Of a stretch of DNA of 64,000 nt, positions 1,292 through 52,865 are shown piece by piece. The position numbers and the translations under genes were made by a program. Position 1 is the stretch's first letter. Each line of letters starts with the position of its first letter. Below the pieces are notes generated by a model, which worked only from the letters and a program-made list of their open reading frames with translations, searched no databases and was not told the DNA's origin. The stretch comes from a virus, in IMG/VR virus record IMGVR_UViG_3300026484_000351, positions 32,769 to 96,768 of that record; one strand, 5' to 3'.

Positions 1292-1600
1292 ATGATAATT
1301 GATTATTTAATTATGGGATTTATTCTTATATTGGGAACTTTATTTGTTGGTTTTTTGCTTGGACTTAAAAAACCAATTGATTCAGATAAGTATTTTCAAG
1401 CAATGTTTACAGGATATGAAGAATCAAAATTAAGATGGCTTTGGAAAACTTTAATATTTGGTGTTGAATATATTGTGGGTGTTCTTATATTATTCATTAT
1501 CAATACTACTTTTTATCCTGCAGATTTAATTAGAACAATTATTAAATATTTATTCGTTAGTTCAAATGACACAGAATCAAAAACGCCAAAAGCTAATTAG
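1292..1600 (+). CDS. putative membrane protein
   Basis: Two hydrophobic segments. Confidence 0.7.
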   Translation: MIIDYLIMGFILILGTLFVGFLLGLKKPIDSDKYFQAMFTGYEESKLRWLWKTLIFGVEYIVGVLILFIINTTFYPADLIRTIIKYLFVSSNDTESKTPKAN

Positions 1601-1850
1601 TTTAATTTTTGGTGGTAAAAATCTTCTCAACCAAAGTCAAATTGATATTTTAGTTCAAGAAATTACAGTCAATAAAAGCAAAGATTACTCGGATAAAATT
1701 TATTTGACTTATAATGATTTGGCAGAACAATTTAAATATTTTGGGCCTGAAATAAGTTTATCAAGAATGAAAAAAAGACAACACCTCGTTCTTAATTATG
1801 AAACACTTATTAAAAATGTTGAGACAAAGTTGCCGGAATTTTTTATTTAA
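1566..1850 (+). CDS. PE-tag family protein (ends KLPEFFI)
   Basis: C-terminal P-E-x-F-I. Confidence 0.75.
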   Translation: MTQNQKRQKLISLIFGGKNLLNQSQIDILVQEITVNKSKDYSDKIYLTYNDLAEQFKYFGPEISLSRMKKRQHLVLNYETLIKNVETKLPEFFI

Positions 1851-2059
1851 AGAAGAATAGACTTTTCACACAATGAAAATGTTTAAACAGCAAATGTGGT
1901 ACAAAAATTAGATTAAATTACGAGAAAAACTTATAAGTTAAACTGACTTAGAAATGTATTAGAAACAAGAATAAAAAAGAGAACCAGAATATGTCTTAAG
2001 TAAAAAAGATAGATATATTGAAACTAAAAATTAAAGATACAATATAAAAGGAAAGAAAA

Positions 2060-2494
2060 ATGTCACTTTTAGAAGATATTAAGAAAGCACAATTACAAGC
2101 AAGAAAAGAAAAAGATAAATTTAGAGCAGGCGTATTGACTTGTTTATACGGTGAAGTAAGTATTATAGGCAAAAATGAGGGTAATAGAGAAACTACTGAC
2201 GAAGAATGTATTAGGATTGTTACCAAATTTAAAAAAGGTGTTGAAGAAAACATTAGATTAAAAAGAGATTCTGGGTGTAATGCAAGAGACCTTGCTAAAT
2301 TTTTTCAAGAAATAGAATTTTATAATACTTTTCTTCCACAGCAAATGACTAAAGATGAATTAACAGAATACATTAAAAAAACTATTGCACTTGGTGCTAA
2401 TAATATTGGAGCGGTAATGAAAGTTATGAAAGCTGAAATTAATGGATTATATGATGGGAAAATGGCTTCAGAGTTAATCAAAAAGTTACTATAA
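2060..2494 (+). CDS. GatB/YqeY domain protein
   Basis: A.K.KDK.R..VL, EI...FLP.Q, IGAVMK...G..DGK..S patterns typical of YqeY. Confidence 0.85.
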   Translation: MSLLEDIKKAQLQARKEKDKFRAGVLTCLYGEVSIIGKNEGNRETTDEECIRIVTKFKKGVEENIRLKRDSGCNARDLAKFFQEIEFYNTFLPQQMTKDELTEYIKKTIALGANNIGAVMKVMKAEINGLYDGKMASELIKKLL

Positions 2495-2534
2495 ATTTAA
2501 GTAAGATTACTATATAATAAATAAAAGGAAATTA

Positions 2535-3398
2535 ATGGAAACAGTTTACGGAATAGATTACACAAAACCAGAAGTTATGTTACTTCAAGAAACAGGATTG
2601 GGTGTACCTGAAATGGCCGCAAGGACTTGTTATGACTCTTTTAATGCATCAGAAAATGAATGTATACCGAGATTAAATAATGCCATTAAAGCTCAGGATC
2701 TGACAGCGGCAACTCATTATTTAACCGAAGTTAATAATATTGAACACTCAGAATTACTTGATACTTTAGCTTGGACTCACTTCCATCACAGCATACTAGA
2801 ACATACAAATTTATCATTTTTAATTAAAGGCACTTCTAGAGGGGTTCTTCAGGAGCATGCTAGACACAGAATCCAAAATATATCTGTAAGAAGTACAAGA
2901 TACACAATGAGCGGAATTATTAATGCATTTGCTGCAACAGTTAAAGAATCTTCAGGAAAAAATGCTTTTATTAGTTTGGTTTTGCCAATGAATATGTTTG
3001 TGACTTCGGATGATAGTTATAACAGAATAGAAATTGGTGGAATATTTGACAAATTGATGTATCAATATAGATTACTTGGTAGAGAAAAATTTATGGAGAT
3101 AGCAGTAGCAAAATCTAGTTTAGATTATGTTAATAGTACAGAGCCTTATGCAATTAAATTTCAATTACTTCAAGATGGTAAGAAAAAAAGAAATGTTGGA
3201 GATGCGCTTAAGCACATCGTCACGGATAACTGGAAGGTTGATATGATTGTTACCATGAACCTAAGAGGATTAAAAAATTATTTCAATTTAAGAGATAGTG
3301 GAGCAGCATTTTTTCAAATAAGATGGTTAGCAAAAGCAATGAAAGAAGTTACACCTTCAAAGTATTTGGATCTGATAGTAAGAAACAAAGGTAAATAA
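2535..3398 (+). CDS. thyX: FAD-dependent thymidylate synthase
   Basis: HHSILEH, SRGVLQEHARHR...SVRSTRY ThyX signature, MNLR...F.LR. Confidence 0.95.
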   Translation: METVYGIDYTKPEVMLLQETGLGVPEMAARTCYDSFNASENECIPRLNNAIKAQDLTAATHYLTEVNNIEHSELLDTLAWTHFHHSILEHTNLSFLIKGTSRGVLQEHARHRIQNISVRSTRYTMSGIINAFAATVKESSGKNAFISLVLPMNMFVTSDDSYNRIEIGGIFDKLMYQYRLLGREKFMEIAVAKSSLDYVNSTEPYAIKFQLLQDGKKKRNVGDALKHIVTDNWKVDMIVTMNLRGLKNYFNLRDSGAAFFQIRWLAKAMKEVTPSKYLDLIVRNKGK

Positions 3399-3615
3399 TG
3401 TAAGATAATAAAATCGTCTGTTAAAAAGTGAATGAAAGTGTTGTGTAGATGCAAACATCAAATAACAATAGGTAACATCCAAGCAATAAAGATGATTTCT
3501 ATTATGGATTTTTTGGGATATGTTTGTCATATAAATGGCAAAAATAGGGTAATTTTCACAGACAGAAAACATAGTTTTTGTGAAGAATCTGAAAGAAAAG
3601 ATAAAAGGGAAAATA

Positions 3616-4311: not shown

Positions 4312-4312
4312 A

Positions 4313-4693: not shown

Positions 4694-5166
4694 TGGGGAT
4701 AGAAATAGAAAGAAAATTTTTAGTTAAAATGAAAAAAGGGCCAATGATAAGTAATAGAAAATATGAAATAACTCAAGGTTACATTTTAAATTTACCTGAA
4801 AAAGTTATAAGAATTAGAATATTTGATAATAGTACAGCTTATATAACTATTAAAGGTAAAAATGAAAATATGACAAGACCAGAATATGAGTATAATATTC
4901 CCTGCGCAGAGGGTGCAGAACTTATAAAAGTAATGTGTACAGATATTATCACTAAAACGAGATATATATGCAATGTGAAAAATAGTAAATGGGAAGTTGA
5001 TTTTTTCCACGGAGATAATGAAGGTTTAATTGTCGCAGAAATTGAGTTAAAAGATGAAGATGATCCTATAGATTACCCAGAGTGGATAGGAAAAGAAGTA
5101 ACTGGCAAGAAGAAATATTATAACAATAATTTAATTAAAAATCCTTATAAAGATTGGAGTAAATAA
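4693..5166 (+). CDS. CYTH-domain (triphosphate tunnel metalloenzyme) protein
   Basis: EIERKFLV, R.EYEY, WEVD.F, AEIEL motifs. Confidence 0.92.
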   Translation: MGIEIERKFLVKMKKGPMISNRKYEITQGYILNLPEKVIRIRIFDNSTAYITIKGKNENMTRPEYEYNIPCAEGAELIKVMCTDIITKTRYICNVKNSKWEVDFFHGDNEGLIVAEIELKDEDDPIDYPEWIGKEVTGKKKYYNNNLIKNPYKDWSK

Positions 5167-5408
5167 TGGAAGTTTATGCAGATAAACTAGGCATTCCACT
5201 AAATGTCGGAGATAGAGTTATAATAGCCAGTGGTGAAACACAAGATTCTTCTATTTATTTAGGAACAGTTAGTGAATTATCTGTATCAAGATATGGTTCA
5301 AAACAAGTTAAAGTAAAAAAAGATGGTGGTTCAATAAATAAAAGAGAACCTGAAGATGTTTTAAGTTTAGTTATTTATGGGAATAATTGTCCCGAAGTTT
5401 TTATATAG
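5166..5408 (+). CDS. PE-tag family protein (ends NCPEVFI), KOW/SH3-like start
   Basis: LNVGDRV motif; C-terminal tag. Confidence 0.75.
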   Translation: MEVYADKLGIPLNVGDRVIIASGETQDSSIYLGTVSELSVSRYGSKQVKVKKDGGSINKREPEDVLSLVIYGNNCPEVFI

Positions 5409-5416: not shown

Positions 5417-5758
5417 ATGGCAGATATTTTAAGTCAAGATGAAATTAATGCTCTTTTAGATATTCCTGATGAAAACTCAGGTGAACCAGATTTTGGTTCA
5501 CCTGAGTTTAAAAAATTATCAGATGCTTTTAACAAAGCATTTCACAAAGTATTTAAGAGAACAGATTTTTATAGAGAAAAAGTGGAACAGAGTGGTTATA
5601 TTCCTAGAATCCGGGGAACAAATCCTAAAGATATGATGGACAGTTTAAAGTGCGAAGAAGAATATTTTCAGAGTACATTAAAGAATTATAAAAAATTTAA
5701 AGAATTTCACAAGAAATTTAAGAAGATAGCAGATGAACAACCTGAAATTTTTATTTAG
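5417..5758 (+). CDS. PE-tag family protein with N-terminal FliM-like CheY-binding peptide
   Basis: AGGAG RBS, then MADILSQDEINALL; ends EQPEIFI. Confidence 0.8.
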   Translation: MADILSQDEINALLDIPDENSGEPDFGSPEFKKLSDAFNKAFHKVFKRTDFYREKVEQSGYIPRIRGTNPKDMMDSLKCEEEYFQSTLKNYKKFKEFHKKFKKIADEQPEIFI

Positions 5759-6423: not shown

Positions 6424-6696
6424 ATGTCTAAAAACTCATGGGTAGTAATTATTGGTGGAGGTTTAATAGGGTTAGGTTTGGGTGTAATGGGAATAACTTT
6501 TAATATGCCATTATGGTGGTTTTTAAATTTACCATTAATTATGTTATTAAATCAGTTTAGCGGAGAAATAGGTGACTTTTTCTCAGATTGGTACAACGAT
6601 ATCATAAAAGGTGAGGTAGTAAATATAATTATTCCCAGAGAAGAGATTAAAGAAAAGCGAAAAGAACAAGCAAAATCTAAGAAAAAATATATTTAA
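6424..6696 (+). CDS. membrane protein ending KKKYI
   Basis: Two hydrophobic segments, basic tail. Confidence 0.7.
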   Translation: MSKNSWVVIIGGGLIGLGLGVMGITFNMPLWWFLNLPLIMLLNQFSGEIGDFFSDWYNDIIKGEVVNIIIPREEIKEKRKEQAKSKKKYI

Positions 6697-6714: not shown

Positions 6715-8007
6715 ATGAACATAACACAAGTATTACCTATAATGGCGGCAAGTAAAAAGACGGGCGATGTTGTACTAATGAGAGGACTGCATGGAATAGG
6801 TAAAAGCGCTATAACAGTACAATATGCAGATCAGTATAATCTTGGTCTAGAGATATTAATATTATCTCTAATGGAACAAGGCGATTTAATCGGAATACCA
6901 AACATTACTAATAATACAACTACTTGGGCAGCACCTGACTGGTTAAATAATTTAAGAGATAAAGCATGGCCTAAAAGATTTAATTTTGAAGATTTAGAAT
7001 TTAAAGATAAAAATTTTGAAGAAGAAGTCAACAAACATTCAAAAAATGCAATACTTAGAGAAAATTTAAATAAATTATATAACGAGTTTTATAATGTTAA
7101 TTTAATTGAGCCTGTTTTAACAAAACAGGATAATGTTTCTTGTAGATTGTCTAAAGAAACTGTATTATTTGTTGATGAATATTCAAGAGCTGGTGCAGAC
7201 ATACATAACAGCACAATGCAATTAATATTAGACAAAAGACTTCATAATCATGTATTGCCTTATGTTAATGGTGTACAAACACAGATAATTGCTGCAGATA
7301 ATCCCGCTGACGGTGATTACCATGTAACTGAATTAGACCCAGCCAAATTAGATAGATTTTTAATTATTGATGTAGAAGTTGATGCAAAAGCGTGGTTGGC
7401 TTGGGCAAGAGAAAATGAGGTTAATTCTATTGTAAGAGATTTTATTATGAATAACCTAACAAAAATCCATTATGTTCCGGAAGACCAAAGTCAAACAGGA
7501 GCAACACCGAGGTCTTGGACTATGCTAGGAAAATTTGTAAACCTTTTTGAAACTATTCCTGAAGAAAGTATTTTTCCAATTATTAGAGGTAAAGTGGGTA
7601 GCTCATTAGGAGCACAATTCTATACATATTACAATGATTATAATAAAAATGTAAGTATTGAAGACATTCAAAAGATTATAGACCAAGAATTCTTTAAACA
7701 AGGCGATAATATTGACTTAGAGAAAATTGGAAAAGTTGTTAAGGAACTAACAAAAGAAATGGAAGGCGTAACTAAAATGGAGTATGCAGAAGAATTATTT
7801 TCGGCCATTAAAACTGAAATTAACGATGCTAAAGGGGTTGAAAATGTAATCCATGTTCTTGGCTTTTTATACTCACTTGATTTGGAAATCCTAACTTCAT
7901 TACTTAAAGAATGGAAAAACAATGAAAAAGAAGCATTTTATGGATTAATGAAACTTGATCCTAAGAAGGCACTTGCCTTAAAAATTAAAAGTAAAGTTCA
8001 AAAATAA
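6715..8007 (+). CDS. MoxR-like AAA+ ATPase
   Basis: Walker A GLHGIGKS, Walker B LFVDE, A.NP...LDPA..DRF, TPRSW sensor. Confidence 0.9.
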   Translation: MNITQVLPIMAASKKTGDVVLMRGLHGIGKSAITVQYADQYNLGLEILILSLMEQGDLIGIPNITNNTTTWAAPDWLNNLRDKAWPKRFNFEDLEFKDKNFEEEVNKHSKNAILRENLNKLYNEFYNVNLIEPVLTKQDNVSCRLSKETVLFVDEYSRAGADIHNSTMQLILDKRLHNHVLPYVNGVQTQIIAADNPADGDYHVTELDPAKLDRFLIIDVEVDAKAWLAWARENEVNSIVRDFIMNNLTKIHYVPEDQSQTGATPRSWTMLGKFVNLFETIPEESIFPIIRGKVGSSLGAQFYTYYNDYNKNVSIEDIQKIIDQEFFKQGDNIDLEKIGKVVKELTKEMEGVTKMEYAEELFSAIKTEINDAKGVENVIHVLGFLYSLDLEILTSLLKEWKNNEKEAFYGLMKLDPKKALALKIKSKVQK

Positions 8008-8255
8008 TGAATAAAATACTTTTAAATGATGTTTTAAAAGTTAAAAATGATTTTTGGGAGGGAAGGAACCCAGAAATTATAGGTTTAGTATCAGAAGTTC
8101 ATACCGATTCTAAAGTATATTTTATGAATTTTATAAATGGTATAGATGCACTCCCAACTGTTTCTAATGGGTTTTATATTAAAGAAAATGATATAATTGA
8201 AAATTTTGGAAATATCAAAGTTTTTAAAGATAAGTATCCAGAATATTTTTTATAA
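8007..8255 (+). CDS. PE-tag family protein (ends KYPEYFL)
   Basis: Coupled to the AAA stop codon (TAATG); C-terminal tag. Confidence 0.8.
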   Translation: MNKILLNDVLKVKNDFWEGRNPEIIGLVSEVHTDSKVYFMNFINGIDALPTVSNGFYIKENDIIENFGNIKVFKDKYPEYFL

Positions 8256-8434
8256 TTTTTCTTATGAGCATAAGTTAGATAGTTATGGAAAAATAAATAA
8301 TAAAAATATGTTGGTCGATTATGGCAACTAAAACAAGTCCGGGTATAGGTGATTTTCTACTACACTCAAGTAAATCTGGTAGAAATATGATAGTTGAGAT
8401 TATGGAAATTTTTATAACGGATTCTTGTAGTGTT

Positions 8435-8596
8435 ATAATAGCAAAGAAATATAAATTTATATAAAGAATATAAATCTATATAATAGTATAAAAAGTTATA
8501 CTATCCTTATTTACTGCTTCTAAGTAACTTCTATAGAACAATTTCTATAGTGGTATAAGAACTCCACAGTCATTAATTTTTTATACTGGTTAGGTA
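8435..8596 (-). ncRNA. putative TnpB omegaRNA/right-end region
   Basis: Non-coding IS end downstream of tnpB with several hairpins; nearly identical at 53121-53284. Assignment rests on known TnpB biology. Confidence 0.5.
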
Positions 8597-9775
8597 CTAT
8601 TCTATCCTAGCCAGTCTTAATGCTTCATTTAGTATGTTTATAGAAGCATTTATATCTCTATCTTCTTCAAAACTGCATTCAGAACATGAGTATATTCGCT
8701 CTTCGAGCGATAAACTCTCTTTTACTGAACCACATCTTGAACAGGTTTTAGAGGAAGGATAATAAGTATCTATTCTAGATATACTAACTTGGTTTTCGTT
8801 AGCTTTATACTCTATTTTAGATACTAAATCACTCCATGCTATATTAGATATAGCTTTAGACAATCTTCTATTTTTAATCATATTTTTTACTTGAAGACTT
8901 TCTAAACCTATAAAATCATATAGATTGATTAGTTTTTTGGATACCTGATGATTTATAGTGTTTCTTGAATTCTTTATTTTATTATGCACCCTAGCTACTT
9001 TTAATCTAGCTTTATTTCTATTTTTGCTTCCTTTCTTCTTTTTACTTAGTTTTCTTTGTTCTAATTTAAGTTTTCTTTGGTACTTATATGTTAATTTATG
9101 ATTTTCTATAGTATATCCATCAGAACATATTATCATATCTTTAAGACCTAAATCTATACCTACTTTCTTATTGGTTTTCTTTCTATTATTCTTTACTTCT
9201 ATCTTATGTGTTATGGTTATTCAGTACTTATCTAGGTTATCTTTTTCTATAGTAAAACCTGTTATTTTACCTATATTATGGTTTGTTTTATGTTTCTTAA
9301 ATTTTATTTTATGGTCTTCTTTAGTATAAGATGACTTATTGCTTTTATTTAATTGTATATGGTTATCTTCTATTTTAACTCTAGAACCAGCCTTCATACC
9401 TATAGTCTTTTTAGATGTCTTTTTACTCTTAAATTTAGGATATCCTCTATCTGGTTGTTTTATAAATTCCTTCATACCAAGATATAAATTAGATAAACTA
9501 GATTGTATAAAATCATTAGGTAATTTATTAATAAAAGAATATTCTTCTTTTAATTTAGTACTAAAACCTACTATACCAGTTTGATTAGGTATCTTAGGTC
9601 TCACTTGACCTTTATTTTTGCCTTTTTCTATAGTGTACACACCAAAATAATTATCTTGTATCTTACCTAAAACATTATTATAGGTAAATCTATAGAGGTT
9701 AAATTGTTTATCTAATAATGCTTTTTGTTTAGCATTAGGATATAGTCTATATTTGTTTGTTCTTACTAATTCCAT
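8597..9775 (-). pseudogene. tnpB: TnpB RNA-guided nuclease with one in-frame TGA at 9221-9223
   Basis: KYRLYPN N-terminus; reading through the TGA gives KY*ITIT...VGIDLGLKD (RuvC-I), then E.L.V, SSKTCS.CG, C..C...DRD.NAS.NI. Confidence 0.9.
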
Positions 9776-9808
9776 ATTTAACCCCTTTATATTTATTTAT
9801 ACAATTAT

Positions 9809-10408
9809 TTATATAATATTATTTTTAAGATTTTCTTGTACAGATTTTAACATCTTTCTTCTATTACTATACATTTTCATACTAAAATGATGTATTATAG
9901 ATATTAAATCCTGTGTTAATTCAGTTTGAAAATCTTCTTCTTTGGTAAAATTTATATATACTATATCTGTTCCATAACTACTAAACCATTTTTCTATATA
10001 ATTATAGCCAAATCTAGTAAGTCTATCTTTATAAGAAATATATATAGTATCTATATTACCATTTTGTACTTCTTTAATAAGAGCATTAAAACCCTTCCTA
10101 TCTTCATTCATTCCAGAAGCTATATCTTTATATACCTTATCTACTATAATACCTTTAGAAGCAATAAATTCCCTTAATATTTTTTCTTGCTTTTCTAAGT
10201 CTTCTTTTTGTTTAGTATTACTTACTCTACAATATATAACTTGATTTTTATCTTTGGGTTTTGTGAGCATTAAACTATCTATATCATATAAGAAATTCCT
10301 ACTATTTAATTCTTTGTATTTAACCTTTCCTTGTCTTCTATAATTATTTAAAGTTTGACTTGTAATGCCCAAAATCTCTTTTATTTTCTTAGCGTTTATA
10401 TAACTCAT
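9809..10408 (-). CDS. tnpA: IS607 transposase (N-terminal HTH + serine recombinase)
   Basis: YCRVS, D.ASG, DRLTRFG, EL.QDLISII..FS.KMY. Confidence 0.95.
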   Translation of the reverse strand: MSYINAKKIKEILGITSQTLNNYRRQGKVKYKELNSRNFLYDIDSLMLTKPKDKNQVIYCRVSNTKQKEDLEKQEKILREFIASKGIIVDKVYKDIASGMNEDRKGFNALIKEVQNGNIDTIYISYKDRLTRFGYNYIEKWFSSYGTDIVYINFTKEEDFQTELTQDLISIIHHFSMKMYSNRRKMLKSVQENLKNNII

Positions 10409-10622
10409 TTATTTCCTTTTATATTTATTTATATATTAAGTAATTTTATTATATAATTTATTATAGATAGAAAGTTATTAATTATAGGTGCAAAATAATG
10501 TTTATTATTGGAGAAAAAGGTCCGGCACCTCTTAAAGGTACTATTGCTTATGTTACTAATTATGATTTATGGATAAATTGCAATTTAGAAGAAATCCCTA
10601 GTAAATATCCGGAGGTATATAT

Positions 10623-11102
10623 TTGAAAATAAATGAATTAAAAATAACTCACACCAATGGAGATTTATATTCCGGATATACGATTGAACTTAACAATATT
10701 ACTAAATATTTTGAACACAATGAGAAATTTCAAGAAGCAGGAATGTTCACAACTAGAAAAATGAAACAACTTTTAGAGGACCCAGAATTCCTAGACTTTG
10801 TAATAAGTAATTACAAGTCTTCAGAACCAGTTGTTGATTTTGATTCTCTAATAGTAGAAAAGGGAGTATCAAAATCAATGCAGGTGCTATTTTATCGTTC
10901 TAGAATAGCAATGAATTATTTTGGAGTGATAACCGAAATGTTAATGAAACTCCGAAATCGAAAAACGATTTTAATTAAACTAGAAGACCCCTTAAAAAAC
11001 TTTAATATAGAAACAATCGTAAAACTACAAAATAAAGAAGAAATGAAGGAGTTTTTTGATTATCAATATATTGAAAACAAATACCCGGAGATGTATATAT
11101 GA
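10623..11102 (+). CDS. PE-tag family protein (ends KYPEMYI)
   Basis: TTG start overlapping upstream stop; C-terminal tag. Confidence 0.75.
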   Translation: MKINELKITHTNGDLYSGYTIELNNITKYFEHNEKFQEAGMFTTRKMKQLLEDPEFLDFVISNYKSSEPVVDFDSLIVEKGVSKSMQVLFYRSRIAMNYFGVITEMLMKLRNRKTILIKLEDPLKNFNIETIVKLQNKEEMKEFFDYQYIENKYPEMYI

Positions 11103-11365
11103 AAAAAAGAGAAGTATTAAAAGGTGATTATGTTTTAATAAAAGACCGTAATGATATTCAGCATGTTGTAAGAGTAGATGCTGTTGTAAAAATAGATACG
11201 ATAAAACCTTCAAAAAAAGTCCAAGCGTATGCAAGTACTATTATTAAAAGTATAGATAAAAGTAATCTTAATACCACCACATTTTATGATAAAGATGTAC
11301 AACTAATATTAGGAGCTATAAATGCTCGAACACTAGAAACAGAATATCCTGAGATATTTCTATGA
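11099..11365 (+). CDS. PE-tag family protein (ends EYPEIFL)
   Basis: ATGA coupling; LKGDYVLIK start; tag. Confidence 0.8.
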   Translation: MKKREVLKGDYVLIKDRNDIQHVVRVDAVVKIDTIKPSKKVQAYASTIIKSIDKSNLNTTTFYDKDVQLILGAINARTLETEYPEIFL

Positions 11366-11631
11366 TTGGTAAATTTGTATTAATAAAAACAGATAATATT
11401 ATTGAAAAAGGTTCGAAGCACTCAGAAGATCAACCTTGTTATTTTGTGGTAAATATAATAGAAAAGAGTAAAATTGGCAGAGATTGGAAATCAAAAGTTC
11501 TTTGGTTTTATGATGTTGCATATAATGAATTACATTTTTTTAAAAAAGATATATTGTTTGAATTTGAAAAAGAACCATCTTGGAGAGAGATGGAAAACAT
11601 GGAAGGAACACATCCAGAGTACTGGTTATAA
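11362..11631 (+). CDS. PE-tag family protein (ends THPEYWL)
   Basis: ATGA coupling; tag. Confidence 0.8.
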   Translation: MIGKFVLIKTDNIIEKGSKHSEDQPCYFVVNIIEKSKIGRDWKSKVLWFYDVAYNELHFFKKDILFEFEKEPSWREMENMEGTHPEYWL

Positions 11632-11974
11632 AGGATTAAAAATAGTTTATGCAATGGTAGATGACCAACTGAATATTTTAAAAATATATTCAGAAAAGGG
11701 TTTAGATGACATTAGAAAATTAAGAACTATCCATGTAAGTAAATTTGAAAAATTAAAATTTAATGGAAATTATGGAAGTTCAACTGTTTTTCCGTTTTAT
11801 GATATTAATGAGGCAAAAATAGTTACTGCTATTAAACAGGTTCAGGGATTAAAGGAACAAGCAATTAATTATGAGAATAACGACTGGAAAATTAATGAAA
11901 ATTTCAAAAGTATAGATAAAACTCAAGAGTGGTTGAAAAAGAAGGAAAAAATTTATCCAGAGTACTTCGTTTAA
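11474..11974 (+). CDS. PE-tag family protein (ends IYPEYFV); true start probably near 11640-11655
   Basis: AAGGA at about 11630; tag. Confidence 0.7.
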   Translation: MAEIGNQKFFGFMMLHIMNYIFLKKIYCLNLKKNHLGERWKTWKEHIQSTGYKGLKIVYAMVDDQLNILKIYSEKGLDDIRKLRTIHVSKFEKLKFNGNYGSSTVFPFYDINEAKIVTAIKQVQGLKEQAINYENNDWKINENFKSIDKTQEWLKKKEKIYPEYFV

Positions 11975-11981
11975 TCTTATT

Positions 11982-12003
11982 TTAATATTTATTATGTTAT
12001 AAT
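11982..12003 (+). promoter_or_regulatory. Early-type promoter
   Basis: TTAATATTTATTATGTTATAAT. Confidence 0.75.
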
Positions 12004-12254
12004 TATTATAGAAAAACACATAAAGGTTATATAATGACAAAAGCGATAAACAACTACAGAATAAGTATTAATTCAAATGACAGATTAACTGGAGAGTTTA
12101 CAGGTGGAAAAGAATATTTTGAAACTGAAGCAGAAGCAGTGATAGTTTTTAATAAATTTGTTTTATAAGAATTAGCACCAAATAATAACTTTCTATTTAT
12201 AGAGAAATATATAAAAATGAAATTTTAGCAAGTTTTGATACAACAGGAATATAA

Positions 12255-12875
12255 ATGATACATAATTTTTTAATAGAGTCTTTGAATGATATTGAAGGTA
12301 TTAATAAAATACAGCATAAACTACAAGATACTTTGTTAAGACCAGCAAAAATCCCTAAGGGAACAGCGGCATTATATTTTAGTGCAAGTGAACTTTCTCG
12401 AATAGTTACTAAATTTTTAGATATTAAAAAGAAGTTTATTGAATTAGATTTATTTAAAGATGAGTTTGATAGATGTAATTATTTTAAAGTTTCTGAATTA
12501 GATACACTTACTTTAATAGAACATAATTTGATGCTTTGGGATTTAAATTATGAAAGTTTATTTGCCACTTTAAAGTATGAAATAAACGATTTAACAGAAA
12601 GAATAAAAAGAGCACCATTAAATTGGTATAATAAGCATGCTTATTTAATAAATAATGAGACTTATATTGACAAAAAATATTTTAGTATTTACAGAATAGT
12701 TGATAAAAATTGGGATACTTTAACAATCACCTTAGAATGTTGTAAGTATAGTACCCATTCGAAAAGTCTTTCAATAGATATAGTTAAAATTAAATGTGAT
12801 AGTATTAGAGATATATATCAAGAACAGTTTTTAAGTGAAGAAATAGGGAAGATTTACCCCGAATGGTTTTTATAA
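12255..12875 (+). CDS. PE-tag family protein (ends IYPEWFL)
   Basis: ORF directly upstream of the vWA gene; tag. Confidence 0.8.
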   Translation: MIHNFLIESLNDIEGINKIQHKLQDTLLRPAKIPKGTAALYFSASELSRIVTKFLDIKKKFIELDLFKDEFDRCNYFKVSELDTLTLIEHNLMLWDLNYESLFATLKYEINDLTERIKRAPLNWYNKHAYLINNETYIDKKYFSIYRIVDKNWDTLTITLECCKYSTHSKSLSIDIVKIKCDSIRDIYQEQFLSEEIGKIYPEWFL

Positions 12876-12884
12876 GGAGAAATA

Positions 12885-14228
12885 GTGGAAAAAGCAACAG
12901 TAGAGAAATTATATAACGAGCAGGATAGGGAATGTATAGATTCCACCTTTGCTAATATGTTTTCTAGTCCAGCATACAGAGAAGATTATGTTTTTTATGC
13001 TCATATATTGGCGCAATGTAAAGTAATTATGACAAGCGATGTTGATTTAGCAGGAGTAAATTTTACAATTAACAAGTATAACCTTTTTATTAATCCAGAA
13101 AGATTTCTTGAATTACCCCTTTTGGAAAGAATGTCAGTACTTAAACACGAATCGCTTCATATTCTTTATGGGCATATTTCAAGAAAGGGAGACAGAAACC
13201 ATAAATTATTCAATAACTCTTCAGATGTTGCAATTAACCAGCTTATCACGAGAGAACATTTACCTGAAGGCTGTCTTTACCCTGATACTCTTGAAAAGGC
13301 TCTAAAGGAACAAGGTTATAAAATAAAAGTACCTGAAATGCTTTCAGCAGAACATTATTATGATTTACTTCCTTCAGAAATAAAAGATAATGCCGAGAAT
13401 GGACAATGTAATAGTGGAGAAGGAAATCCTCAAAATTGTGAAAAATGTGGTGGAGCTGGTAAAGAAGAAGACGGAAAACCTTGTAAACATTGTAATGGAA
13501 CGGGTAAAGAATTCTACAAAGGTTTATTTAAAGATAATCCACTTGATGACCATAGCAAATGGAATGAGTCAGAAGGAGAATCTGACTTACAACAGGACAT
13601 CACAAAAAGAATGATTGATAAAAGTATTGAAAAATCAAGAGGAAACACGCCTTCTCATTTAGAGTATTTTATGGAATTATGGGGGAAAAAAGCACAAATT
13701 AGTTGGAAAAAAGTTCTTAGAAATATCGCAAGTAATAAAAAAGCAAATAAAGTAACAACTATTATGAGAAAATCAAGACGGTTCCCAAATAGACTTGAAA
13801 TTAGAGGCCATAAGAAAGACAAAATCTTTGATATTGTAGTTATATTAGATGTTTCGGGGAGTATGTCAGATAAAGAAATTATTACTGGACTGGCAGAAAT
13901 TCGTGAAGTAGCAAAACTTACGGCAAGTACTGTTAAAATTATTCAAGTTGATACAGAAGTGCATGCAGTAGAGGATTTTACGCCAGGCAAATTTAATAGA
14001 AGTGCAGGTGGTGGAACAGAAATGCTACCAGGATTTAGATACATTAAGGAGAATAAGGTATCGCATGATGCTATTATTTTAATTACAGATGGATGGATAG
14101 AGGATATTTCATACTGGGCAAAAGAAGGTGTAGCACCAAAATGTCCTTTAATGATTCTTAGCACTGAAGCAGATATTGATGTTTCAGGATACAGAAATTA
14201 TAGATTTTTCAAACTAGATCAAGCGTAG
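12885..14228 (+). CDS. DUF2201-type metallopeptidase + vWA protein with inserted CxxCxGxG zinc finger
   Basis: HESLH (HExxH), D.AINQ, CEKCGGAG/CKHCNGTG, MIDAS DVSGS, GGT, ITDG. Confidence 0.9.
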   Translation: MEKATVEKLYNEQDRECIDSTFANMFSSPAYREDYVFYAHILAQCKVIMTSDVDLAGVNFTINKYNLFINPERFLELPLLERMSVLKHESLHILYGHISRKGDRNHKLFNNSSDVAINQLITREHLPEGCLYPDTLEKALKEQGYKIKVPEMLSAEHYYDLLPSEIKDNAENGQCNSGEGNPQNCEKCGGAGKEEDGKPCKHCNGTGKEFYKGLFKDNPLDDHSKWNESEGESDLQQDITKRMIDKSIEKSRGNTPSHLEYFMELWGKKAQISWKKVLRNIASNKKANKVTTIMRKSRRFPNRLEIRGHKKDKIFDIVVILDVSGSMSDKEIITGLAEIREVAKLTASTVKIIQVDTEVHAVEDFTPGKFNRSAGGGTEMLPGFRYIKENKVSHDAIILITDGWIEDISYWAKEGVAPKCPLMILSTEADIDVSGYRNYRFFKLDQA

Positions 14229-14238
14229 GAAAAACATT

Positions 14239-14502
14239 ATGAATTATTATGAAAATGCTAATATGCAATTTGAAAAAAGAGAACCAATTAGATATTATTT
14301 TGATGGTAAAGATCTCAAAGGAATTTATAATATAGATTCTGGAAAAAATCTAAAAAAATCTATTTTAAAAAGAAAATTCAAGATAGGCTCATTAAAAAGT
14401 GTTGATATAGCCGAATATAGAGAACTAGGATTATTTCATAGTTATCATAAAAGTATTTCAAAAGAAAAGGCAGAAAAATTATATCCAGAATTTTTTATAT
14501 AA
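14239..14502 (+). CDS. PE-tag family protein (ends LYPEFFI)
   Basis: C-terminal tag. Confidence 0.8.
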   Translation: MNYYENANMQFEKREPIRYYFDGKDLKGIYNIDSGKNLKKSILKRKFKIGSLKSVDIAEYRELGLFHSYHKSISKEKAEKLYPEFFI

Positions 14503-14511
14503 GGAAAAAAT

Positions 14512-14793
14512 ATGAGTTTAAAGAATATTAAAGTATTTAATCAAAATGAATATATTGGTAAAATTATCAAACTTCAAATGAAAGGTACTAACAATATAGG
14601 TTTTTATGAAGTTGTTAAATTTAACAGTTATATATCTTGTAGATTAATTTATACTATTGAGAAAGGAACAATAAGAAAACAATTTAAAACTAATAGATGT
14701 GTCTTATTTGACATTAAAGATTTTTTTAATAGTGAATTCTTAAATTGTAAACCAGAGGAATTTGAAATTAAATACCCTGAATATTTTATATAG
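14512..14793 (+). CDS. PE-tag family protein (ends KYPEYFI)
   Basis: C-terminal tag. Confidence 0.8.
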   Translation: MSLKNIKVFNQNEYIGKIIKLQMKGTNNIGFYEVVKFNSYISCRLIYTIEKGTIRKQFKTNRCVLFDIKDFFNSEFLNCKPEEFEIKYPEYFI

Positions 14794-14801
14794 GAGAGAA
14801 A

Positions 14802-15017
14802 ATGAATGAATTAGATAAATATTTTAATAAAAAAATGTCATTCAAAGACATATTTACTAAAGATGGAAGTGGTTCTTTTAGTGAAGATTTTGATGTCCGT
14901 ACTATAAAGGACAGAAAAATGGAAAATATAAAAAATTATATCAAAGAACATTATGATATGAGTTTGGATGAATTAGATGAATTTATAATGAAATATGAAC
15001 CTGAAAGGACTGTATAA
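14802..15017 (+). CDS. PE-tag family protein, variant (ends YEPERTV)
   Basis: P-E at -5/-4. Confidence 0.7.
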   Translation: MNELDKYFNKKMSFKDIFTKDGSGSFSEDFDVRTIKDRKMENIKNYIKEHYDMSLDELDEFIMKYEPERTV

Positions 15018-15460
15018 TGGGTAAAATCTTATACGCAATTAAACCAATAGGTGTCACAAAGGGGTTTGGGCGAGTATATAACAAACAGTTATATATTGGT
15101 AAGTATGAAGTTATTAATGGTACTGACATTAAATTAGTAGAAGTGCAGGACTTTAATAAAAATATAATTAAAAGACATTCATTTCCAGCGTCACTAAAAT
15201 ATGGCTCATACAATGGAATACAAACAGAAGATGTTGGTAGTGAAAATATCTATTCTGGAATGCCCAACACCAATTCGGTAATATTATTTGTAACATTAGT
15301 CGAAGCCAAATTACAAAAATTAATAGATATAAAATATATTAAGATATATTTTGAAAAGGAACTAAGAAAACTTCAAGAAAGAGCAGAAAATAATCTACCT
15401 AAAAATATTGAAGAAATTTTTGAGGAATATAGTGGTAAATACCCGGAATATTTAATATGA
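15017..15460 (+). CDS. PE-tag family protein (ends KYPEYLI)
   Basis: C-terminal tag. Confidence 0.8.
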   Translation: MGKILYAIKPIGVTKGFGRVYNKQLYIGKYEVINGTDIKLVEVQDFNKNIIKRHSFPASLKYGSYNGIQTEDVGSENIYSGMPNTNSVILFVTLVEAKLQKLIDIKYIKIYFEKELRKLQERAENNLPKNIEEIFEEYSGKYPEYLI

Positions 15461-16020
15461 TTAATTCAGGTGAGCATTTTGAAAATTATATTAGTCACAA
15501 AGATATTAAAATTTATTTTGATAACAATAAAGATAAAACCCAAATGAAATTATTTACCTCTTATTATGGATATATAACTGTTAATGGCAGAAAAACATCC
15601 CTTCAAGAAGATTATAAAGTTGAACCAGTTGAAATTGTATTATCTGTAGAAAATAAAGAACTTTGTGACCCGTTCAGAAATATGGATAATCTTATGAATG
15701 GATTAGATGAAAAACATAATACAGGTTTAAGCTCAGATAGTTTTAAAAACCCCGAGTTGACAGAATGGCAACCTTTACCCAAAGATACATTAACCTATTT
15801 TGATTGGCATGTAACTTTAACAACTCAAAATTCAGATATAGAAATTGATAAAGGAATTATAGAAAGACTTAAATTTTTTCATACAATGGAACAGGCAGAA
15901 ATGAATTATATTAAAATGATGGAATATAAATTTAAAGAATTAGGAATATTTGAAGCATTTGATAAATATAATGAATTATATAATTCATTAAGTAATAAAT
16001 ATCCTGAAGAATTTATATAA
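15457..16020 (+). CDS. PE-tag family protein (ends KYPEEFI)
   Basis: C-terminal tag. Confidence 0.8.
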   Translation: MINSGEHFENYISHKDIKIYFDNNKDKTQMKLFTSYYGYITVNGRKTSLQEDYKVEPVEIVLSVENKELCDPFRNMDNLMNGLDEKHNTGLSSDSFKNPELTEWQPLPKDTLTYFDWHVTLTTQNSDIEIDKGIIERLKFFHTMEQAEMNYIKMMEYKFKELGIFEAFDKYNELYNSLSNKYPEEFI

Positions 16021-16060
16021 AAATGAACAATTACTTAAAAAACTTTATTTAAGGAACTAT

Positions 16061-16258
16061 ATGAATACAGAAATAATTATTGAACCTTTAAATTTTCAAA
16101 GCAATTATTTTATTTGTGAAGTAAGATATAAAGTTGGTAAAAGTATAGTCGTTGCCGAAGGAATTGTAATGCTTACATTAAAAGACTTAACTAAAACAGT
16201 TCCTTTGCATTGTACTTTAAAGAACTTTGAGGAAGAGCATCCAGAGTTTTTCTTATAA
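16061..16258 (+). CDS. PE-tag family protein (ends EHPEFFL)
   Basis: C-terminal tag. Confidence 0.75.
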   Translation: MNTEIIIEPLNFQSNYFICEVRYKVGKSIVVAEGIVMLTLKDLTKTVPLHCTLKNFEEEHPEFFL

Positions 16259-17210: not shown

Positions 17211-17537
17211 ATGGAAACATTTACATCATCAACGGTATTTACTTTATCACTAAGTAATCCTTTAATGGTATTAGGTATGGTAGCAGTATTATGGTCAAAA
17301 TCATTTAGGAATTTTGTAGAAAATTGGGGATTCTTATTTATGATTTTGTGTTGGTATTTTTATGGAATTATAGGATGGTTATTGCTTTGGATATTTTATG
17401 AATTAGTAGTTTTTATGCATAACAATACTAAAGCAAAAACTAAAAAAGTTAAGAAAAAGACAAAAGATACTAATGACCAGTTTTTTGATGATTTGAAAAA
17501 CAAGAAAAGAAAACAAGAAGCAAAAAAATATATTTAA
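17211..17537 (+). CDS. membrane protein ending EAKKYI
   Basis: Hydrophobic N-half, basic tail. Confidence 0.7.
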   Translation: METFTSSTVFTLSLSNPLMVLGMVAVLWSKSFRNFVENWGFLFMILCWYFYGIIGWLLLWIFYELVVFMHNNTKAKTKKVKKKTKDTNDQFFDDLKNKKRKQEAKKYI

Positions 17538-27590: not shown

Positions 27591-27803
27591 ATGATATATA
27601 AAGTTAGAAAATTTGATACAGATGAATTGCTTCTTGAATTTCTTGAGAAAAACATAGGAAAAATAGATATTATTTCAACTCATAATACACCTTTTCAAGA
27701 AGACAGAAGATTTGGTGGTAGTTACCGAGACATATACACCGAGAGTGTAAGAGTTTCGGTGATATATAAAGAAATTTCAGAAATTAAAAGAAAGGAAATA
27801 TAA
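27591..27803 (+). CDS. hypothetical protein
   Basis: ORF in operon. Confidence 0.65.
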   Translation: MIYKVRKFDTDELLLEFLEKNIGKIDIISTHNTPFQEDRRFGGSYRDIYTESVRVSVIYKEISEIKRKEI

Positions 27804-28165
27804 TGCAAGAGTTTGGATTTAGCACAATTGAGGCTTTTCCAGAGCCAAAAGCTAAACTAACAAAAAGGACTATTATTGGATATTCTTCGCCAAAAATGTT
27901 TTATACACCAGATGAAATAGAGCAGGACATCCCAGTTATTAAATTAGCATTTACGAATAACAATGTTATAAAACTGTTTTTAAGGGAGTTTTATAAACCA
28001 ACTGATATTCAAATTATACAATACTTGTTGACTTATAAAAAAGTTATCTTAACAAACTGTGAATATGAGTTTGTGTATGTACAAGAAGGCCAAGAGGAAT
28101 TATTCCTGGAAATGTATATGGGAATAAAACACGAAGAAAAACAAAAATTTAAAAAATATATTTAA
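27803..28165 (+). CDS. hypothetical protein ending KFKKYI
   Basis: ORF in operon. Confidence 0.7.
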   Translation: MQEFGFSTIEAFPEPKAKLTKRTIIGYSSPKMFYTPDEIEQDIPVIKLAFTNNNVIKLFLREFYKPTDIQIIQYLLTYKKVILTNCEYEFVYVQEGQEELFLEMYMGIKHEEKQKFKKYI

Positions 28166-40124: not shown

Positions 40125-40298
40125 ATGAAGCAAAAAACAATTGATGAAGGATTAAATGAATTTATGAAAATAACAAATGGTATGAGATTAGACAAAGCCA
40201 TAAAACTTGTTATGATTGAAGTACTTTCTTTAAAACAAGAAATCCAAAAACTAAAGGAACATACACTTGAGCCTAAAACTGTTAGGAAATATATTTAA
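40125..40298 (+). CDS. 57-aa hypothetical protein ending VRKYI (below the ORF-track cutoff)
   Basis: Hand translation MKQKTIDEG...PKTVRKYI*. Confidence 0.55.
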   Translation: MKQKTIDEGLNEFMKITNGMRLDKAIKLVMIEVLSLKQEIQKLKEHTLEPKTVRKYI

Positions 40299-43185: not shown

Positions 43186-45045
43186 ATGGCAACAATAGGA
43201 ATAGATTTAGGAACTACAAATAGTGCGGTAGCAGTATATGAAGCAGGGGAAGCAAAAATCATCCCAAATGCAGAGGGCAAAAATACAACACCATCAATAG
43301 TAGCGTTTACAAATAAAGGTGATGTTTTAGTTGGTGAACCAGCAAAAAGACAGGCCGTAACAAACCCAACAGGAACAATTGAAGCGGTAAAAAGAATTAT
43401 GGGTATGCAATTTAATGAACCAAAATGCAAAGAAGCTCAAGAAAAAGTACAGTATAAGATTGTAAATAAAAATGGACTGGCTGCAGTTGAAATTGATGGC
43501 AAATCATACACCCCACAAGAAATTTCGGCTAAGATTTTATCGAAATTAAAAGACGATGCAGAAAGTTATTTAGGTACAACTGTAACAGATGCAGTTATTA
43601 CAGTACCAGCATACTTTAATGATGCTCAAAGAAAAGCGACACAAGAAGCAGGGACAATTGCAGGACTTAATGTATTAAGAATTATAAATGAACCAACATC
43701 TGCTTCACTAGCTTATGGACTTGATAAAAAAGGTGAAGAAAAAGTAGCCATTGTAGATTTAGGCGGCGGCACATATGATGTTTCTGTAATGGAAATAGGT
43801 GATGGGACTTTTGAAGTTTTATCGACAGATGGAAATGCTTTTTTTGGTGGAAAAGATTATGATCAAGATATTGTTAATTATTTAGCTGGAGATTTTAAGT
43901 CTAATAATGGGGTAGATTTAAGAAATGATAGTATGGCAATGCAAAGATTATTTGATGCAGCTGAAAATGCTAAGAAAGAGTTAAGTTCAACAATGGAAAC
44001 AGAGATAAACTTACCATTTATTACAGCAGATGCAACAGGACCAAAACATTTAGTCGTATCTTTAACAAAAGCAAAATTTGAAGAGTTAATTAGTGAAAGA
44101 ACAAAAGAGGTTACAACTCACTTAGAAACTGCTTTAACTGATGCAGGTTTAACACCAAATGATATTAACGAAGTTATTATGGTTGGGGGTTCAACAAGGA
44201 TTCCGTTAGTGCAAGAGAAAGTCCAAAAATTCTTTGGTGGTAAAACATTAAATAATTCAGTTAATCCCGATGAAGTTGTTGCTGCTGGTGCAGCAATACA
44301 AGCAGGGGTATTAAGTGGAGATGTTAAAGATGTTCTTTTACTTGATGTTACACCATTAAGTCTTGGTATTGAAACAATGGGTGGTATTATGACTACTCTT
44401 ATTGAAAAAGGTACAACAATTCCAGTTAAAAAATCTCAAGTATTTAGTACAGCAGAAGATAATCAACCAGCAGTATCTGTAAGAATAGCACAGGGTGAAG
44501 CAAAATTATTTGAAGATAATAAAATGTTAGGTAATTTTGAATTAGGTGATATTGCTCCAGCTCCAAGAGGAACTCCTCAAATAGAAATCACACTTGATGT
44601 AGATGCTAATGGTGTATTAAATGTTTCAGCAAAAGATAAAGCGACAGGAAAAGAAAATAGTGTAACTATTACTGGTAGTACGGGTTTATCTGATAATGAA
44701 ATTGCTAAAATGGTGGCTGATGCCGAAAAAGCAAATGCTGATAAAAAAGATAAAGTTGAAGCAATTGAAGCAAGAAATGCGTTAGATAGTTTAATTTCAC
44801 AAGCAAGAAAAACTAATGATGAAGTTAAAGATGAAAGTCTTACGACGGCAATTAGTACAGCAGAAGAAAAATCAAAAAATGAGGTTTTAACTAAAAGTGA
44901 CTTAGAAACAGCTAAATCTGATTTAGAAAAAGTGCTTATGGAAGTAATGCAAAAACAAGCACAACACGGAACATCAAATGAAGCATCTGAACAAGCCGAA
45001 AAGGTTAATGATAGTAGCACCATTATTGATGCGGAGGTAGAGTAG
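43186..45045 (+). CDS. dnaK: chaperone DnaK (Hsp70)
   Basis: [39 protein letters not shown]. Confidence 0.98.
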
Positions 45046-45061
45046 GTTTATCCTACTCTAC
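45037..45061 (+). other. perfect 10-bp hairpin over the dnaK stop codon
   Basis: GTAGAGTAGG-TTTAT-CCTACTCTAC, no U-tract. Confidence 0.7.
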
Positions 45062-45074
45062 AAAAGAGTTAGAA

Positions 45075-45587
45075 ATGGCTACAAAAATTCACGAAGATTT
45101 AACTGAAAACGAAAAATTGGACACGGCTGAAGTAGAAGAAAGAGAGCAATCAGATGTTCCCTATGAAAATACAAAACTTAAAGATAAAATTAAAGCATTA
45201 GAAAGCGAAAATCTCAGAACTCATGCTGATTTCCAGAATGTAAAGAAAAGACTAGAAAAAGAAAAATTAAATTCTATAAAATTTGCACAAGAACAATTTT
45301 CTCTAGACTTATTAGAAGTATTGGATTCTTTATATATCGCAGTACAAGTTATACAAGATGCAAAAGAAAAGGAAGGTATAACAAACACAATTAAAAAACT
45401 AACAGATATTTTTAGTAAATATCATATTTCTGAAGTTACATATGAAGTATTTAACCCTAACTTACATCAAGCAGTACAGACAATTAAATCAGAAAAAGCT
45501 TCAGGAGAAATTGTTCAAGTTCTAAGGAAAGGTTATACAATCCATGATAAAATACTAAGACCAGCAATGGTGAGTATATCTCAATAA
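45075..45587 (+). CDS. grpE: nucleotide exchange factor GrpE
   Basis: [29 protein letters not shown]. Confidence 0.95.
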
Positions 45588-45597
45588 AAGGAAGAAT

Positions 45598-46353
45598 ATG
45601 AAAGATTTATATAAGACATTAGAGATAAGTGAAAATGCAACCGAACAGGAAATTAAAAAAGCTTATAGAAAATTAGCAAAGAATTATCATCCTGATGTCA
45701 ATAAAACCAAAGAAGCCGAAGAAAAATTTAAAGAGATAAATGCAGCTTATGAAGTCTTAAGCGATAAAAATAAAAAAGCACAGTATGATAGATATGGTGA
45801 TCAAATGTTTAACCAAAACAATTATGCCGGCCATCAACAACATTCTGAAGATATTTTTGAACAGATGTTTAGAGCTAGCTTTGGGTTTAATAATCAAATT
45901 AATCTCGATAGAACCGTAAGGGTAAGAGTACCATTAGATAAAGCTATAAAAGGCGGCAAGATAACTATTGAAGGCAATACTATATCATTTCCTAAAAATA
46001 TTAGTAATGGCACAAAACTAAGAGTAAAAGGAAAAGGCAAAACTTTTCAAGGGCAAACTGGAGATTTATATGTACAGTTAGTTGTTGTCGGGGATAATAA
46101 CTTTGAAGTAAATTATAACACTATACATACAAGCGTTGAATTAAATCTAAAAGAAGCTATTTTTGGAACACATAAAGAAATAAATTTATATGGAGATATA
46201 ATAAAAATAAAAATTCCTAAAGATATTAAATATGGACAACAACTACGAATTAGAGGAAAAGGTCTACATAATGATAATATGATAGTTCATTGTATTTATG
46301 TTTTACCAAAGTCAGACGAAATAAAAGAAAGTGATTTAAACTTTGTAAAATAA
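45598..46353 (+). CDS. dnaJ: DnaJ/CbpA-type co-chaperone without zinc finger
   Basis: J-domain with HPD, LRV.GKG, GDLYV. Confidence 0.92.
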
Positions 46354-49333: not shown

Positions 49334-49352
49334 CTAATAGGACGGAAATAAT

Positions 49353-52124: not shown

Positions 52125-52301
52125 GTAAGTTGTTGAATGCCTATAAAAACTGAAATGGAGTTAAGGTGTTAGGCATAGAAGTTAAAATAAGGTGTAAGAA
52201 CGGGTTCAAGAGAAGAAGTGGAAAATATCCACTTCAATAAAGACTATATCTGTCTCCACTTGAAGTAATTGACAAATGCGGCAGTATCATAGTGAAATAT
52301 A

Positions 52302-52576
52302 ATGAAAACAAAAAATATTTTTTATAAAAAAGGTTTTAAAGCTTATATTTTTAAGAAATTAAATAGCAGGATTTATAGAACAAAAGGCGAATCTTCTAAA
52401 ATTGGTTTAGAAATAGAACTGGGCGATATGTTTTTTGAGAAAGAAGATTATTGAGATGAAGTAGAATATAGAGCAATGCAAGCATTTATAAATGCTTTTG
52501 GTGATTTAAGACTATATGCTTTTGAATATAGGCCTATAGGAGAATAGAAACTTACACCCCTGAATTGTTTATTTAA
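52302..52576 (+). pseudogene. direct repeat copy 2; decayed PE-tag gene (ancestral end ETYTPELFI)
   Basis: TGA where copy 1 has TGG, plus a 1-nt loss near 52540. Confidence 0.8.
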
Positions 52577-52586
52577 AGGAATATAA

Positions 52587-52865
52587 ATGAATATTAAAAT
52601 ATTTAGAGAAGACTTTAGTGCATTTAATTTATTAGAACAAAATGAATTACTTTTATATTGTAAATTTTTTCTTAAATTGAAAATAAAATCTGCTGTTGCT
52701 AAAAAAGATTTTAATTCTATTTATTTTGACATAATGAGGGAACTATCTGAATTTGAAAATAAACTAATTCATAAGTTCAGAAAAGAAAAACTTCAATATA
52801 TAAAAATACAGAATAATATAAATTATAATTACATTAGAGATAAATACCCTGAAGTTTTTATTTAA
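52587..52865 (+). CDS. PE-tag family protein (ends KYPEVFI)
   Basis: AAGGA RBS; C-terminal tag. Confidence 0.8.
   Translation: MNIKIFREDFSAFNLLEQNELLLYCKFFLKLKIKSAVAKKDFNSIYFDIMRELSEFENKLIHKFRKEKLQYIKIQNNINYNYIRDKYPEVFI

Follow-up and report, generated by a model that had tools for sequence, protein, structure and literature searches.

The window considered here is a stretch of 64,000 nucleotides, bases 32769-96768 of the 96.8-kb IMG/VR viral contig IMGVR_UViG_3300026484_000351, in which 17 open reading frames (ORFs) encode proteins that end in one short peptide, P-E-x-x-x directly before the stop codon, with the proline at position -5 counted from the C-terminus. This C-terminal tag is the subject of the present analysis, together with two genes that stand among the tagged ORFs and encode a MoxR-type AAA+ ATPase and a DUF2201 protein with metallopeptidase-like and vWA domains. 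All 17 tagged ORFs reported in the initial annotation were recovered on the plus strand by a six-frame scan of the window; the single P-E-x-x-x ending among minus-strand ORFs is a chance match, and an 18th tagged ORF (ending FPEYTL) lies upstream of the window on the same contig. Since the completeness of the contig is estimated at 37%, the phage genome is probably large, about 260 kb. The window has a GC content of 27-28% and encodes Hsp70, type II topoisomerase subunits, a UvsW-like helicase, Nampt and ThyX, and no nucleotide-level match to the region was found among cultured phages by BLASTN.

The tagged ORFs are all on the plus strand. Three of them come first: 1566..1850 (94 residues, ending LPEFFI), 5166..5408 (80 residues, CPEVFI) and 5417..5758 (113 residues, QPEIFI). 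The body of the second opens with an 'LNVGD' segment that by eye looks like a small beta-barrel; it has a tagged homologue in another phage genome (G002, below), phrog_2251 is part of the evidence on this ORF, and a word-based homologue search with 5166-5405 returned the query alone. The region 6715-16258, where 12 of the 20 genes are tagged, starts with the MoxR-type ATPase of the AAA_5 family (6715..8007, plus strand), a candidate reader of the tag, whose stop codon is overlapped by the start of the tagged ORF 8007..8255 (82 residues, YPEYFL). An IS607-like insertion follows on the minus strand (8597..10408), consisting of a serine recombinase (9809-10408) and a TnpB in two ORFs (9221-9775 and 8597-9136), so split that one piece carries the helix-turn-helix and the other the RuvC/TNB part. 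This element is flanked by 8321..8464 and 10498..10626 (ending YPEVYI), both on the plus strand, which are putative N- and C-terminal halves of one interrupted tagged gene. Next come 10623..11102 (YPEMYI; 119-159 residues, depending on a start at TTG 10623 or ATG 10743), 11099..11365 (88 residues, YPEIFL, with a weak OB-like match and weak homology to the product of 8007..8255), 11362..11631 (89 residues, HPEYWL) and 11474..11974 (YPEYFV). The last of these overlaps its predecessor, and an in-frame Met codon at about 11650, just past the stop of 11362-11631, looks by eye the likelier start.

The DUF2201 protein, the candidate reader or effector, is encoded at 12885..14228 (plus strand), its true start being GTG 12885. 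Directly upstream lies the tagged ORF 12255..12875 (206 residues, YPEWFL), and downstream are 14239..14502 (87 residues, YPEFFI), 14512..14793 (93 residues, YPEYFI, which is the consensus tag), 15017..15460 (147 residues, YPEYLI), 15457..16020 (187 residues, YPEEFI) and 16061..16258 (65 residues, HPEFFL); the intervening 14802..15017 (71 residues, EPERTV) is a degenerate or doubtful member. One tagged ORF is an outlier at 52587..52865 (92 residues, YPEVFI). It adjoins a plus-strand TnpB C-terminal fragment of 76 residues (52890-53120), the end of which is nearly identical to that of the split TnpB.

The frequency and register of the motif are far from chance. By a crude gene call of 180 genes in the contig, on which these counts rest, P-E with the proline at -5 ends 17 proteins where 0.34 is expected (Poisson p 2.3e-23), and at offsets -2 to -4 and -6 to -12 it occurs in none of the 180. 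The statement that every Pro and Glu codon and every stop codon is used in the tags also holds (Pro as CCG 5, CCC 2, CCT 6 and CCA 4-5 times), both Tyr codons are used as well, and the DNA 3′ of the tags shows no conservation. This synonymous and stop-codon variation indicates selection on the peptide. The idea that a DNA element at gene ends, such as a recombination, promoter or coupling signal, underlies the motif can draw on the over-representation of CCG among tag Pro codons (5/17 versus 43/691 elsewhere) and on four or five tags in which CCG-GAG is at the same time the GGAG ribosome-binding site of a downstream start that overlaps. That overlap accounts for the CCG enrichment and does not explain the motif, which moreover holds across phage genomes with GC contents of 20-45%. 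We regard a DNA-level explanation as having next to no probability; it is effectively refuted by the synonymous variation.

The same tag was found in other phages by searching IMG/VR with a degenerate DNA pattern for K-Y-P-E-[Y/F]-F-I-stop, which revealed arrays of small ORFs with like ends (15 in 12 kb in L018, 11 in L015 and 10 in L008); a second pattern for K-Y-P-E-L-F-I added few loci. Three whole records were fetched: G001 (224 kb, 85% complete), G002 (103.5 kb, with terminal repeats, 100%) and G004 (83 kb, 79%). Tagged genes, always with the proline at -5, number 37 of 381 in G001, 51 of 175 (29%) in G002 and 17 of 115 in G004, where, as in the present contig, 0.3-0.8 such endings are expected and other offsets hold 0-4. 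The pooled logo (n = 122) reads Y/F/H at -6, P at -5, E at -4, L/Y/I/F at -3, F/L/Y at -2 and I (84%), L or V at -1, with further hydrophobic positions at -10 and -13, from which an amphipathic helix preceding the tag is deduced. Across about 155,000 residues the strict six-residue motif is terminal 76 times, internal once and displaced from the end by 1-10 residues never. Since the register is absolute, recognition appears to involve the free C-terminus. Tagged proteins are small (medians of 85-100 residues, maximum 294), and their genes are clustered, mostly on one strand; the highest density seen is in a 14-kb locus of 45% GC (L068, IMG/VR 3300002026_000071), with 13 of 25 called genes (52%) tagged.

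Among cultured phages, Vibrio phage phiKT1024 bears the same tag, a few of its ends having Cys or Ala in place of the proline (HCEWFI, FAEYLI, LAEYFI), and the Vibrio phages Va1, pv27 and phiTY18 are probably also tagged. In 185,579 prokaryotes, one genome per species, such arrays were essentially absent, except for two 4-kb low-GC scaffolds of one metagenome-assembled genome ('Thermoplasmata archaeon M9B1D'; L147 and L152), which consist almost wholly of tagged small ORFs (6 and 8) and are probably phage DNA mis-binned into this archaeal genome.

The bodies to which the tag is attached are largely unrelated. As had been said of the proteins in the window, all-vs-all BLASTP gave few and weak similarities among them (8007 with 11099, E 5e-4; 14512 with 16061, E 2e-4), and Pfam and PHROGs returned nothing useful for them. 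For 120 tagged proteins of the four phages, Pfam matched only 8 families with one or two proteins each, among them DUF7448, a DnaJ zinc-finger, a Pol-beta-type nucleotidyltransferase, AAA_14, a ProQ-C-like domain, a PolB fragment and an OB-like domain. DUF7448 is the most instructive case: the match covers practically the whole of its 104-position domain, and the tag is in an extension of 27 residues. Among the 120 homologues of this domain in the database, 109 stop within a few residues of its last conserved motif, and 11 have an extension of 20-27 residues ending in [Y/H]-P-E-x-x-[I/L]. In the AlphaFold2 (AF2) model the extension consists of a helix of 10 residues and, after it, a helical turn at P-E-L, and is confident to the last residue or two. 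Thus the BLASTP pairs, the differing Pfam families and the DUF7448 homologues, most of which lack the module, show no end-to-end homology of full-length paralogues; by sequence comparison, the tag is a portable module and not the end of one paralogous fold.

These data also bear on whether a common receptor is needed at all. The module might be a structural cap, a last helix with a hydrophobic plug, on fast-evolving domains, and spread by duplication or exon-like shuffling in hyperplastic early regions. Such a cap would fit the ordered helix that AF2 models in one protein (pLDDT, the predicted local distance difference test score, of 92-96 over residues 121-140), the hydrophobic positions -13, -10 and -6, suited to a packing helix, and the weak paralogy of some bodies, with local paralogue families as in L008. 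A cap has, however, no need to end exactly at the carboxylate, and the register is absolute; it would not be expected on unrelated folds, and it leaves unexplained the co-occurrence, adjacency and co-variation of tag and gene pair described below. We therefore consider it an improbable account.

The pair consists of proteins with conserved sequence motifs. In Pfam the MoxR protein matches AAA_5 with 32.1 bits against a cut-off of 22 (residues 20-215); its Walker A (GLHGIGKS), Walker B (D154-E155), sensor-1 (N196) and arginine finger (R214) are invariant or nearly so in an alignment of 25 sequences, and its post-sensor-1 loop comprises residues 197-213. A sequence search of the PDB with MoxR alone gave no match. 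[quoted passage not shown] In 55 sequences H88, H92, H97, D322, S324, S326 and D402 are invariant, and E89 and T378 are nearly so. By Foldseek the vWA half of its model matches integrin I domains and the peptidase half nothing clear; the peptidase domain has a weak profile match to the minimal gluzincin MJ1213 (E 0.014). A complex prediction of the DUF2201 protein with tag 40-mers, Zn and Mg, run without controls, scored 0.00 and speaks neither for nor against binding.

A MoxR and metallopeptidase-vWA pair of the same architecture, likewise phage-encoded (AAA_5; HExxH-containing DUF2201_N and vWA-type DUF2201), has been described in group 2.2 jumbo phages, where a virion-assembly chaperone with peptidolytic processing was proposed (Iyer et al. 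2021, PMC7824862). That paper does not mention a shared tag or a client set. The pair of the window differs in being embedded in arrays of tagged small genes, and the tags go with one lineage of the pair only.

Several observations link this pair to the tag. First, MoxR and DUF2201 are the only families common to all four tag-bearing genomes; these form two groups with almost no relation to each other, the present contig and G001 sharing only 5-6 families with G002 and G004. Second, tagged ORFs directly flank the pair genes in all four, that is, in G001, G002, G004 and the present window; in phiKT1024, a 'putative metal-dependent peptidase' gene is followed by about 15 small ORFs ending in P-E-x-[F/L]-I, the MoxR gene lying elsewhere. 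Third, the tag follows one lineage of DUF2201. A search with a 14-sequence alignment provided 80 IMG/VR loci, each a DUF2201 relative with 10 kb on either side, in 61 of which MoxR lies within 10 kb of DUF2201. Tagged ORFs were present in 23 of the 31 loci whose DUF2201 has at least 34% identity to that of the window, versus 1 of the 49 with 32% or less, and this one locus has a single tagged ORF. An internal control is provided by the distant set, to which a record matching Bacillus phage AR9 belongs.

Finally, tag and pair may vary together. Position -4 has variant dialects: P-H-L-F-L in L073 (about 11-16 ORFs), and P-Q-Y-F-I or P-H-x-L-I in L079/L100. In both variant lineages DUF2201 carries V323T, in the middle of the D-x-S of the MIDAS, and P382A, four residues past the MIDAS Thr, and MoxR carries V204T and P209D, between sensor-1 N196 and arginine finger R214; these four changes are found in no other compared sequence, and the two lineages are not sisters in the DUF2201 tree. 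This co-variation is suggestive only. K241 of DUF2201, which was considered as a partner of the tag Glu, was rejected, since L076 has Glu at this position yet has PE tags.

With this, it is slightly more probable than otherwise, judging from sequence comparisons, that the tag is read by the phage's own MoxR and DUF2201 pair. The earlier idea of a constant handle recognised by one receptor is thus partly supported: comparative evidence speaks well for the handle on dissimilar bodies and for the pair as the one specific candidate for the receptor, whose binding may lead to docking, degradation or packaging.

A number of points weigh against assigning the reading to the pair. The overlap of changed conserved DUF2201 columns between the two variant lineages is 5/74 (hypergeometric p 0.01), and 4 of 105 control pairs are as high; in the MoxR tree the variant lineages are sisters (92/93), so that the MoxR changes may represent a single event. 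No tags lie near the pair in Alteromonas phage AD45-P1 (34.5% identity), in Bacillus phage AR9 or in many distant DUF2201 lineages. The pair must therefore have some tag-independent role, and the tag system would be an elaboration within one lineage of the pair. The converse, that tag implies pair, is based on five genomes of adequate completeness only; ten contigs with the tag pattern, 6-25% complete, were all DUF2201-negative, and are fragments too partial to count against the pair. MoxR ATPases are generally remodellers and are not known to be unfoldases for proteolysis. The order that AF2 gives to the module likewise raises the possibility that it may pack on its own body rather than hang free.

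A reader supplied by the host is an alternative to the pair. The tag could serve as a degron or docking motif for a conserved host protein, for instance ClpXP/ClpAP, FtsH, Lon, Prc (a tail-specific protease), a PDZ protease, the beta clamp or DnaK, and the pair would then be a fellow traveller of the accessory region. With its non-polar character and strictly terminal position, the tag is similar to known C-terminal degrons and to class II PDZ ligands; the pair also occurs where there are no tags, and the contig itself encodes Hsp70 and a ClpP-like protein. A universal reader, on the other hand, would not limit tags to phages with one lineage of the pair. The GC range of the tag-bearing phages (20-45%) suggests diverse hosts, of which only Vibrio is known (phiKT1024), and the residue at -4 changes together with residues of the phage's pair; the tag also lacks the Q-x-x-L-x-F clamp motif. 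For these reasons a host reader seems unlikely. Relatives of the ClpP-like protein (49 bits; encoded at contig 15365-16111, upstream of the window) occur in G002 and G004 and not in G001; this protein is probably a prohead protease instead of a tag reader. Since neither it nor Hsp70 is common to all tag-bearing genomes, both were rejected as universal readers.

If the pair is the reader, the portable module of the last 20 or so residues would serve as an address. It is made up of a short amphipathic helix and, after it, the sequence [Y/F/H]-P-E-hydrophobic-[F/L/Y]-[I/L/V]-COOH, would need a free C-terminus and is appended to many unrelated small non-structural phage proteins. Its hydrophobic end could dock on the post-sensor-1 loops of the MoxR ring, by analogy with NorQ-NorD, or on the vWA domain at its MIDAS face. 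The most likely consequence would be that the tagged proteins are turned over or clipped, a role as adaptors for host targets being somewhat less likely and chaperoned assembly clearly the least likely of the three. For turnover, the AAA+ ATPase and the HExxH protein would act together in a manner functionally like FtsH, with the tag as a phage-private degron.

The adaptor role would make the tagged proteins a fast-evolving library, in which the variable body grabs a host protein, the tail plugs into the pair and the captive is remodelled or cleaved. This is a tentative proposal to which we give a minor share of probability. It is hinted at by the product of 5417-5758, which combines a C-terminal tag with a FliM-like N-terminus, MADILSQDEINALL (ILSQDEINALL), in which 8 of 10 residues equal the CheY-binding N-terminal peptide of FliM (LSQAEIDALL in E. 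coli). This protein may be a decoy or adaptor for CheY-P, and its FliM-like peptide hints at a flagellated host.

The pair might instead act as a chaperone by which tagged proteins are assembled or brought into the virion. For encapsulins, C-terminal peptides that direct the loading of cargo are known and offer a precedent for packaging by a terminal signal. The published proposal of virion assembly with peptidolytic processing (PMC7824862) points the same way. As many as 51 different tagged proteins in a genome of 103.5 kb are implausible as capsid cargo, however, and the tagged genes stand in runs of small ORFs of no known family, mostly on one strand. Given that no tagged protein exceeds 294 residues, no large capsid or tail component is tagged either. 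Packaging or assembly thus appears quite improbable.

Among known systems, the closest precedent for reading of a C-terminus by a MoxR ring is NorQ-NorD, in which the MoxR post-sensor-1 loops are the docking site for the hydrophobic extreme C-terminus of the vWA partner, and a two-residue deletion abolishes the complex (PMC13036017). A MoxR ring can therefore read a hydrophobic C-terminus at this loop, and by alignment position the MoxR changes of the variant lineages fall in the same loop. In NorQD, however, the C-terminus belongs to the single vWA partner and there is no peptidase domain, whereas here dozens of clients would be served. For the alternative docking site, integrin I domains and the Rea1-MIDAS/Ytm1-UBL complex (6qtb) provide comparisons: the vWA domain of DUF2201 has a complete MIDAS and an integrin-I-like fold, and known MIDAS ligands supply Glu, Asp or a carboxylate, as the tag might with its invariant Glu and free carboxylate. 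This Glu is not an obligatory metal ligand, since some lineages have His or Gln instead.

Short free C-terminal peptides that are carried by unrelated proteins and recognised by one receptor are also known from ssrA/ClpXP-SspB, PTS1 'SKL'/Pex5, the HbYX motif of proteasome activators and EEVD/TPR. The phage tag differs from these in sequence, in being gene-encoded and not added by tmRNA, in being phage-private and in the family of its candidate reader. In particular, it is encoded before the protein's own stop codon and ends in [F/L/Y]-[I/L/V], not in LAA as an ssrA-type degron does. In phage T4, the hydrophobic C-terminal tails of gp43, gp33 and gp55 bind the sliding clamp gp45, so that there, too, one phage has several proteins with a common docking tail at a hydrophobic C-terminus. 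The functional partners in T4 number three or four, whereas here 10-30% of all genes are tagged and a clamp-type motif (QL[SD]LF or PIP-like) is absent: at none of the last 11 positions does Gln rank with the commonest residues, Pro and Glu being the invariant ones. Thus short C-terminal address tags are known, and a phage-private tag on dozens of unrelated proteins is not known to have been described; in keeping with the earlier remark that the motif was new, searches of the literature on the pair, on DUF2201 and on phiKT1024 turned up no description of it.

The MoxR and peptidase-vWA pair of large phages has so far had no known client. Should its link to the tag hold, a common fate would be assigned to between a tenth and nearly a third of those genes of many uncultured phages, marine and other, that cannot otherwise be annotated, and MoxR biology would gain its first multi-client recognition code. 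The tag would also provide a six-residue handle by which phage accessory proteins could be found, sorted and manipulated. If the adaptor role were true, 10-30% of the genes in some phages would form a phage-encoded, programmable system of targeted protein destruction. As a cultured Vibrio phage, phiKT1024 makes the link between tag and pair directly testable.

Two further features of the contig deserve mention. At 43186-46353 of the window, two ORFs of 170 and 251 residues come after the Hsp70 gene (619 residues; HSP70, 766 bits), and their products may be co-chaperones similar to GrpE and DnaJ. At least a dozen untagged genes of the contig (for example, 6424-6696, 17211-17537, 27803-28165, 40125-40298 and 59328-59663 of the window) have a recurrent C-terminus of another kind, [K/R]-[K/R]-Y-I or K-R-E-I directly ahead of the stop codon, which may be either a further peptide end or a DNA-level signal, for instance the promoter or ribosome-binding site of the gene that follows.

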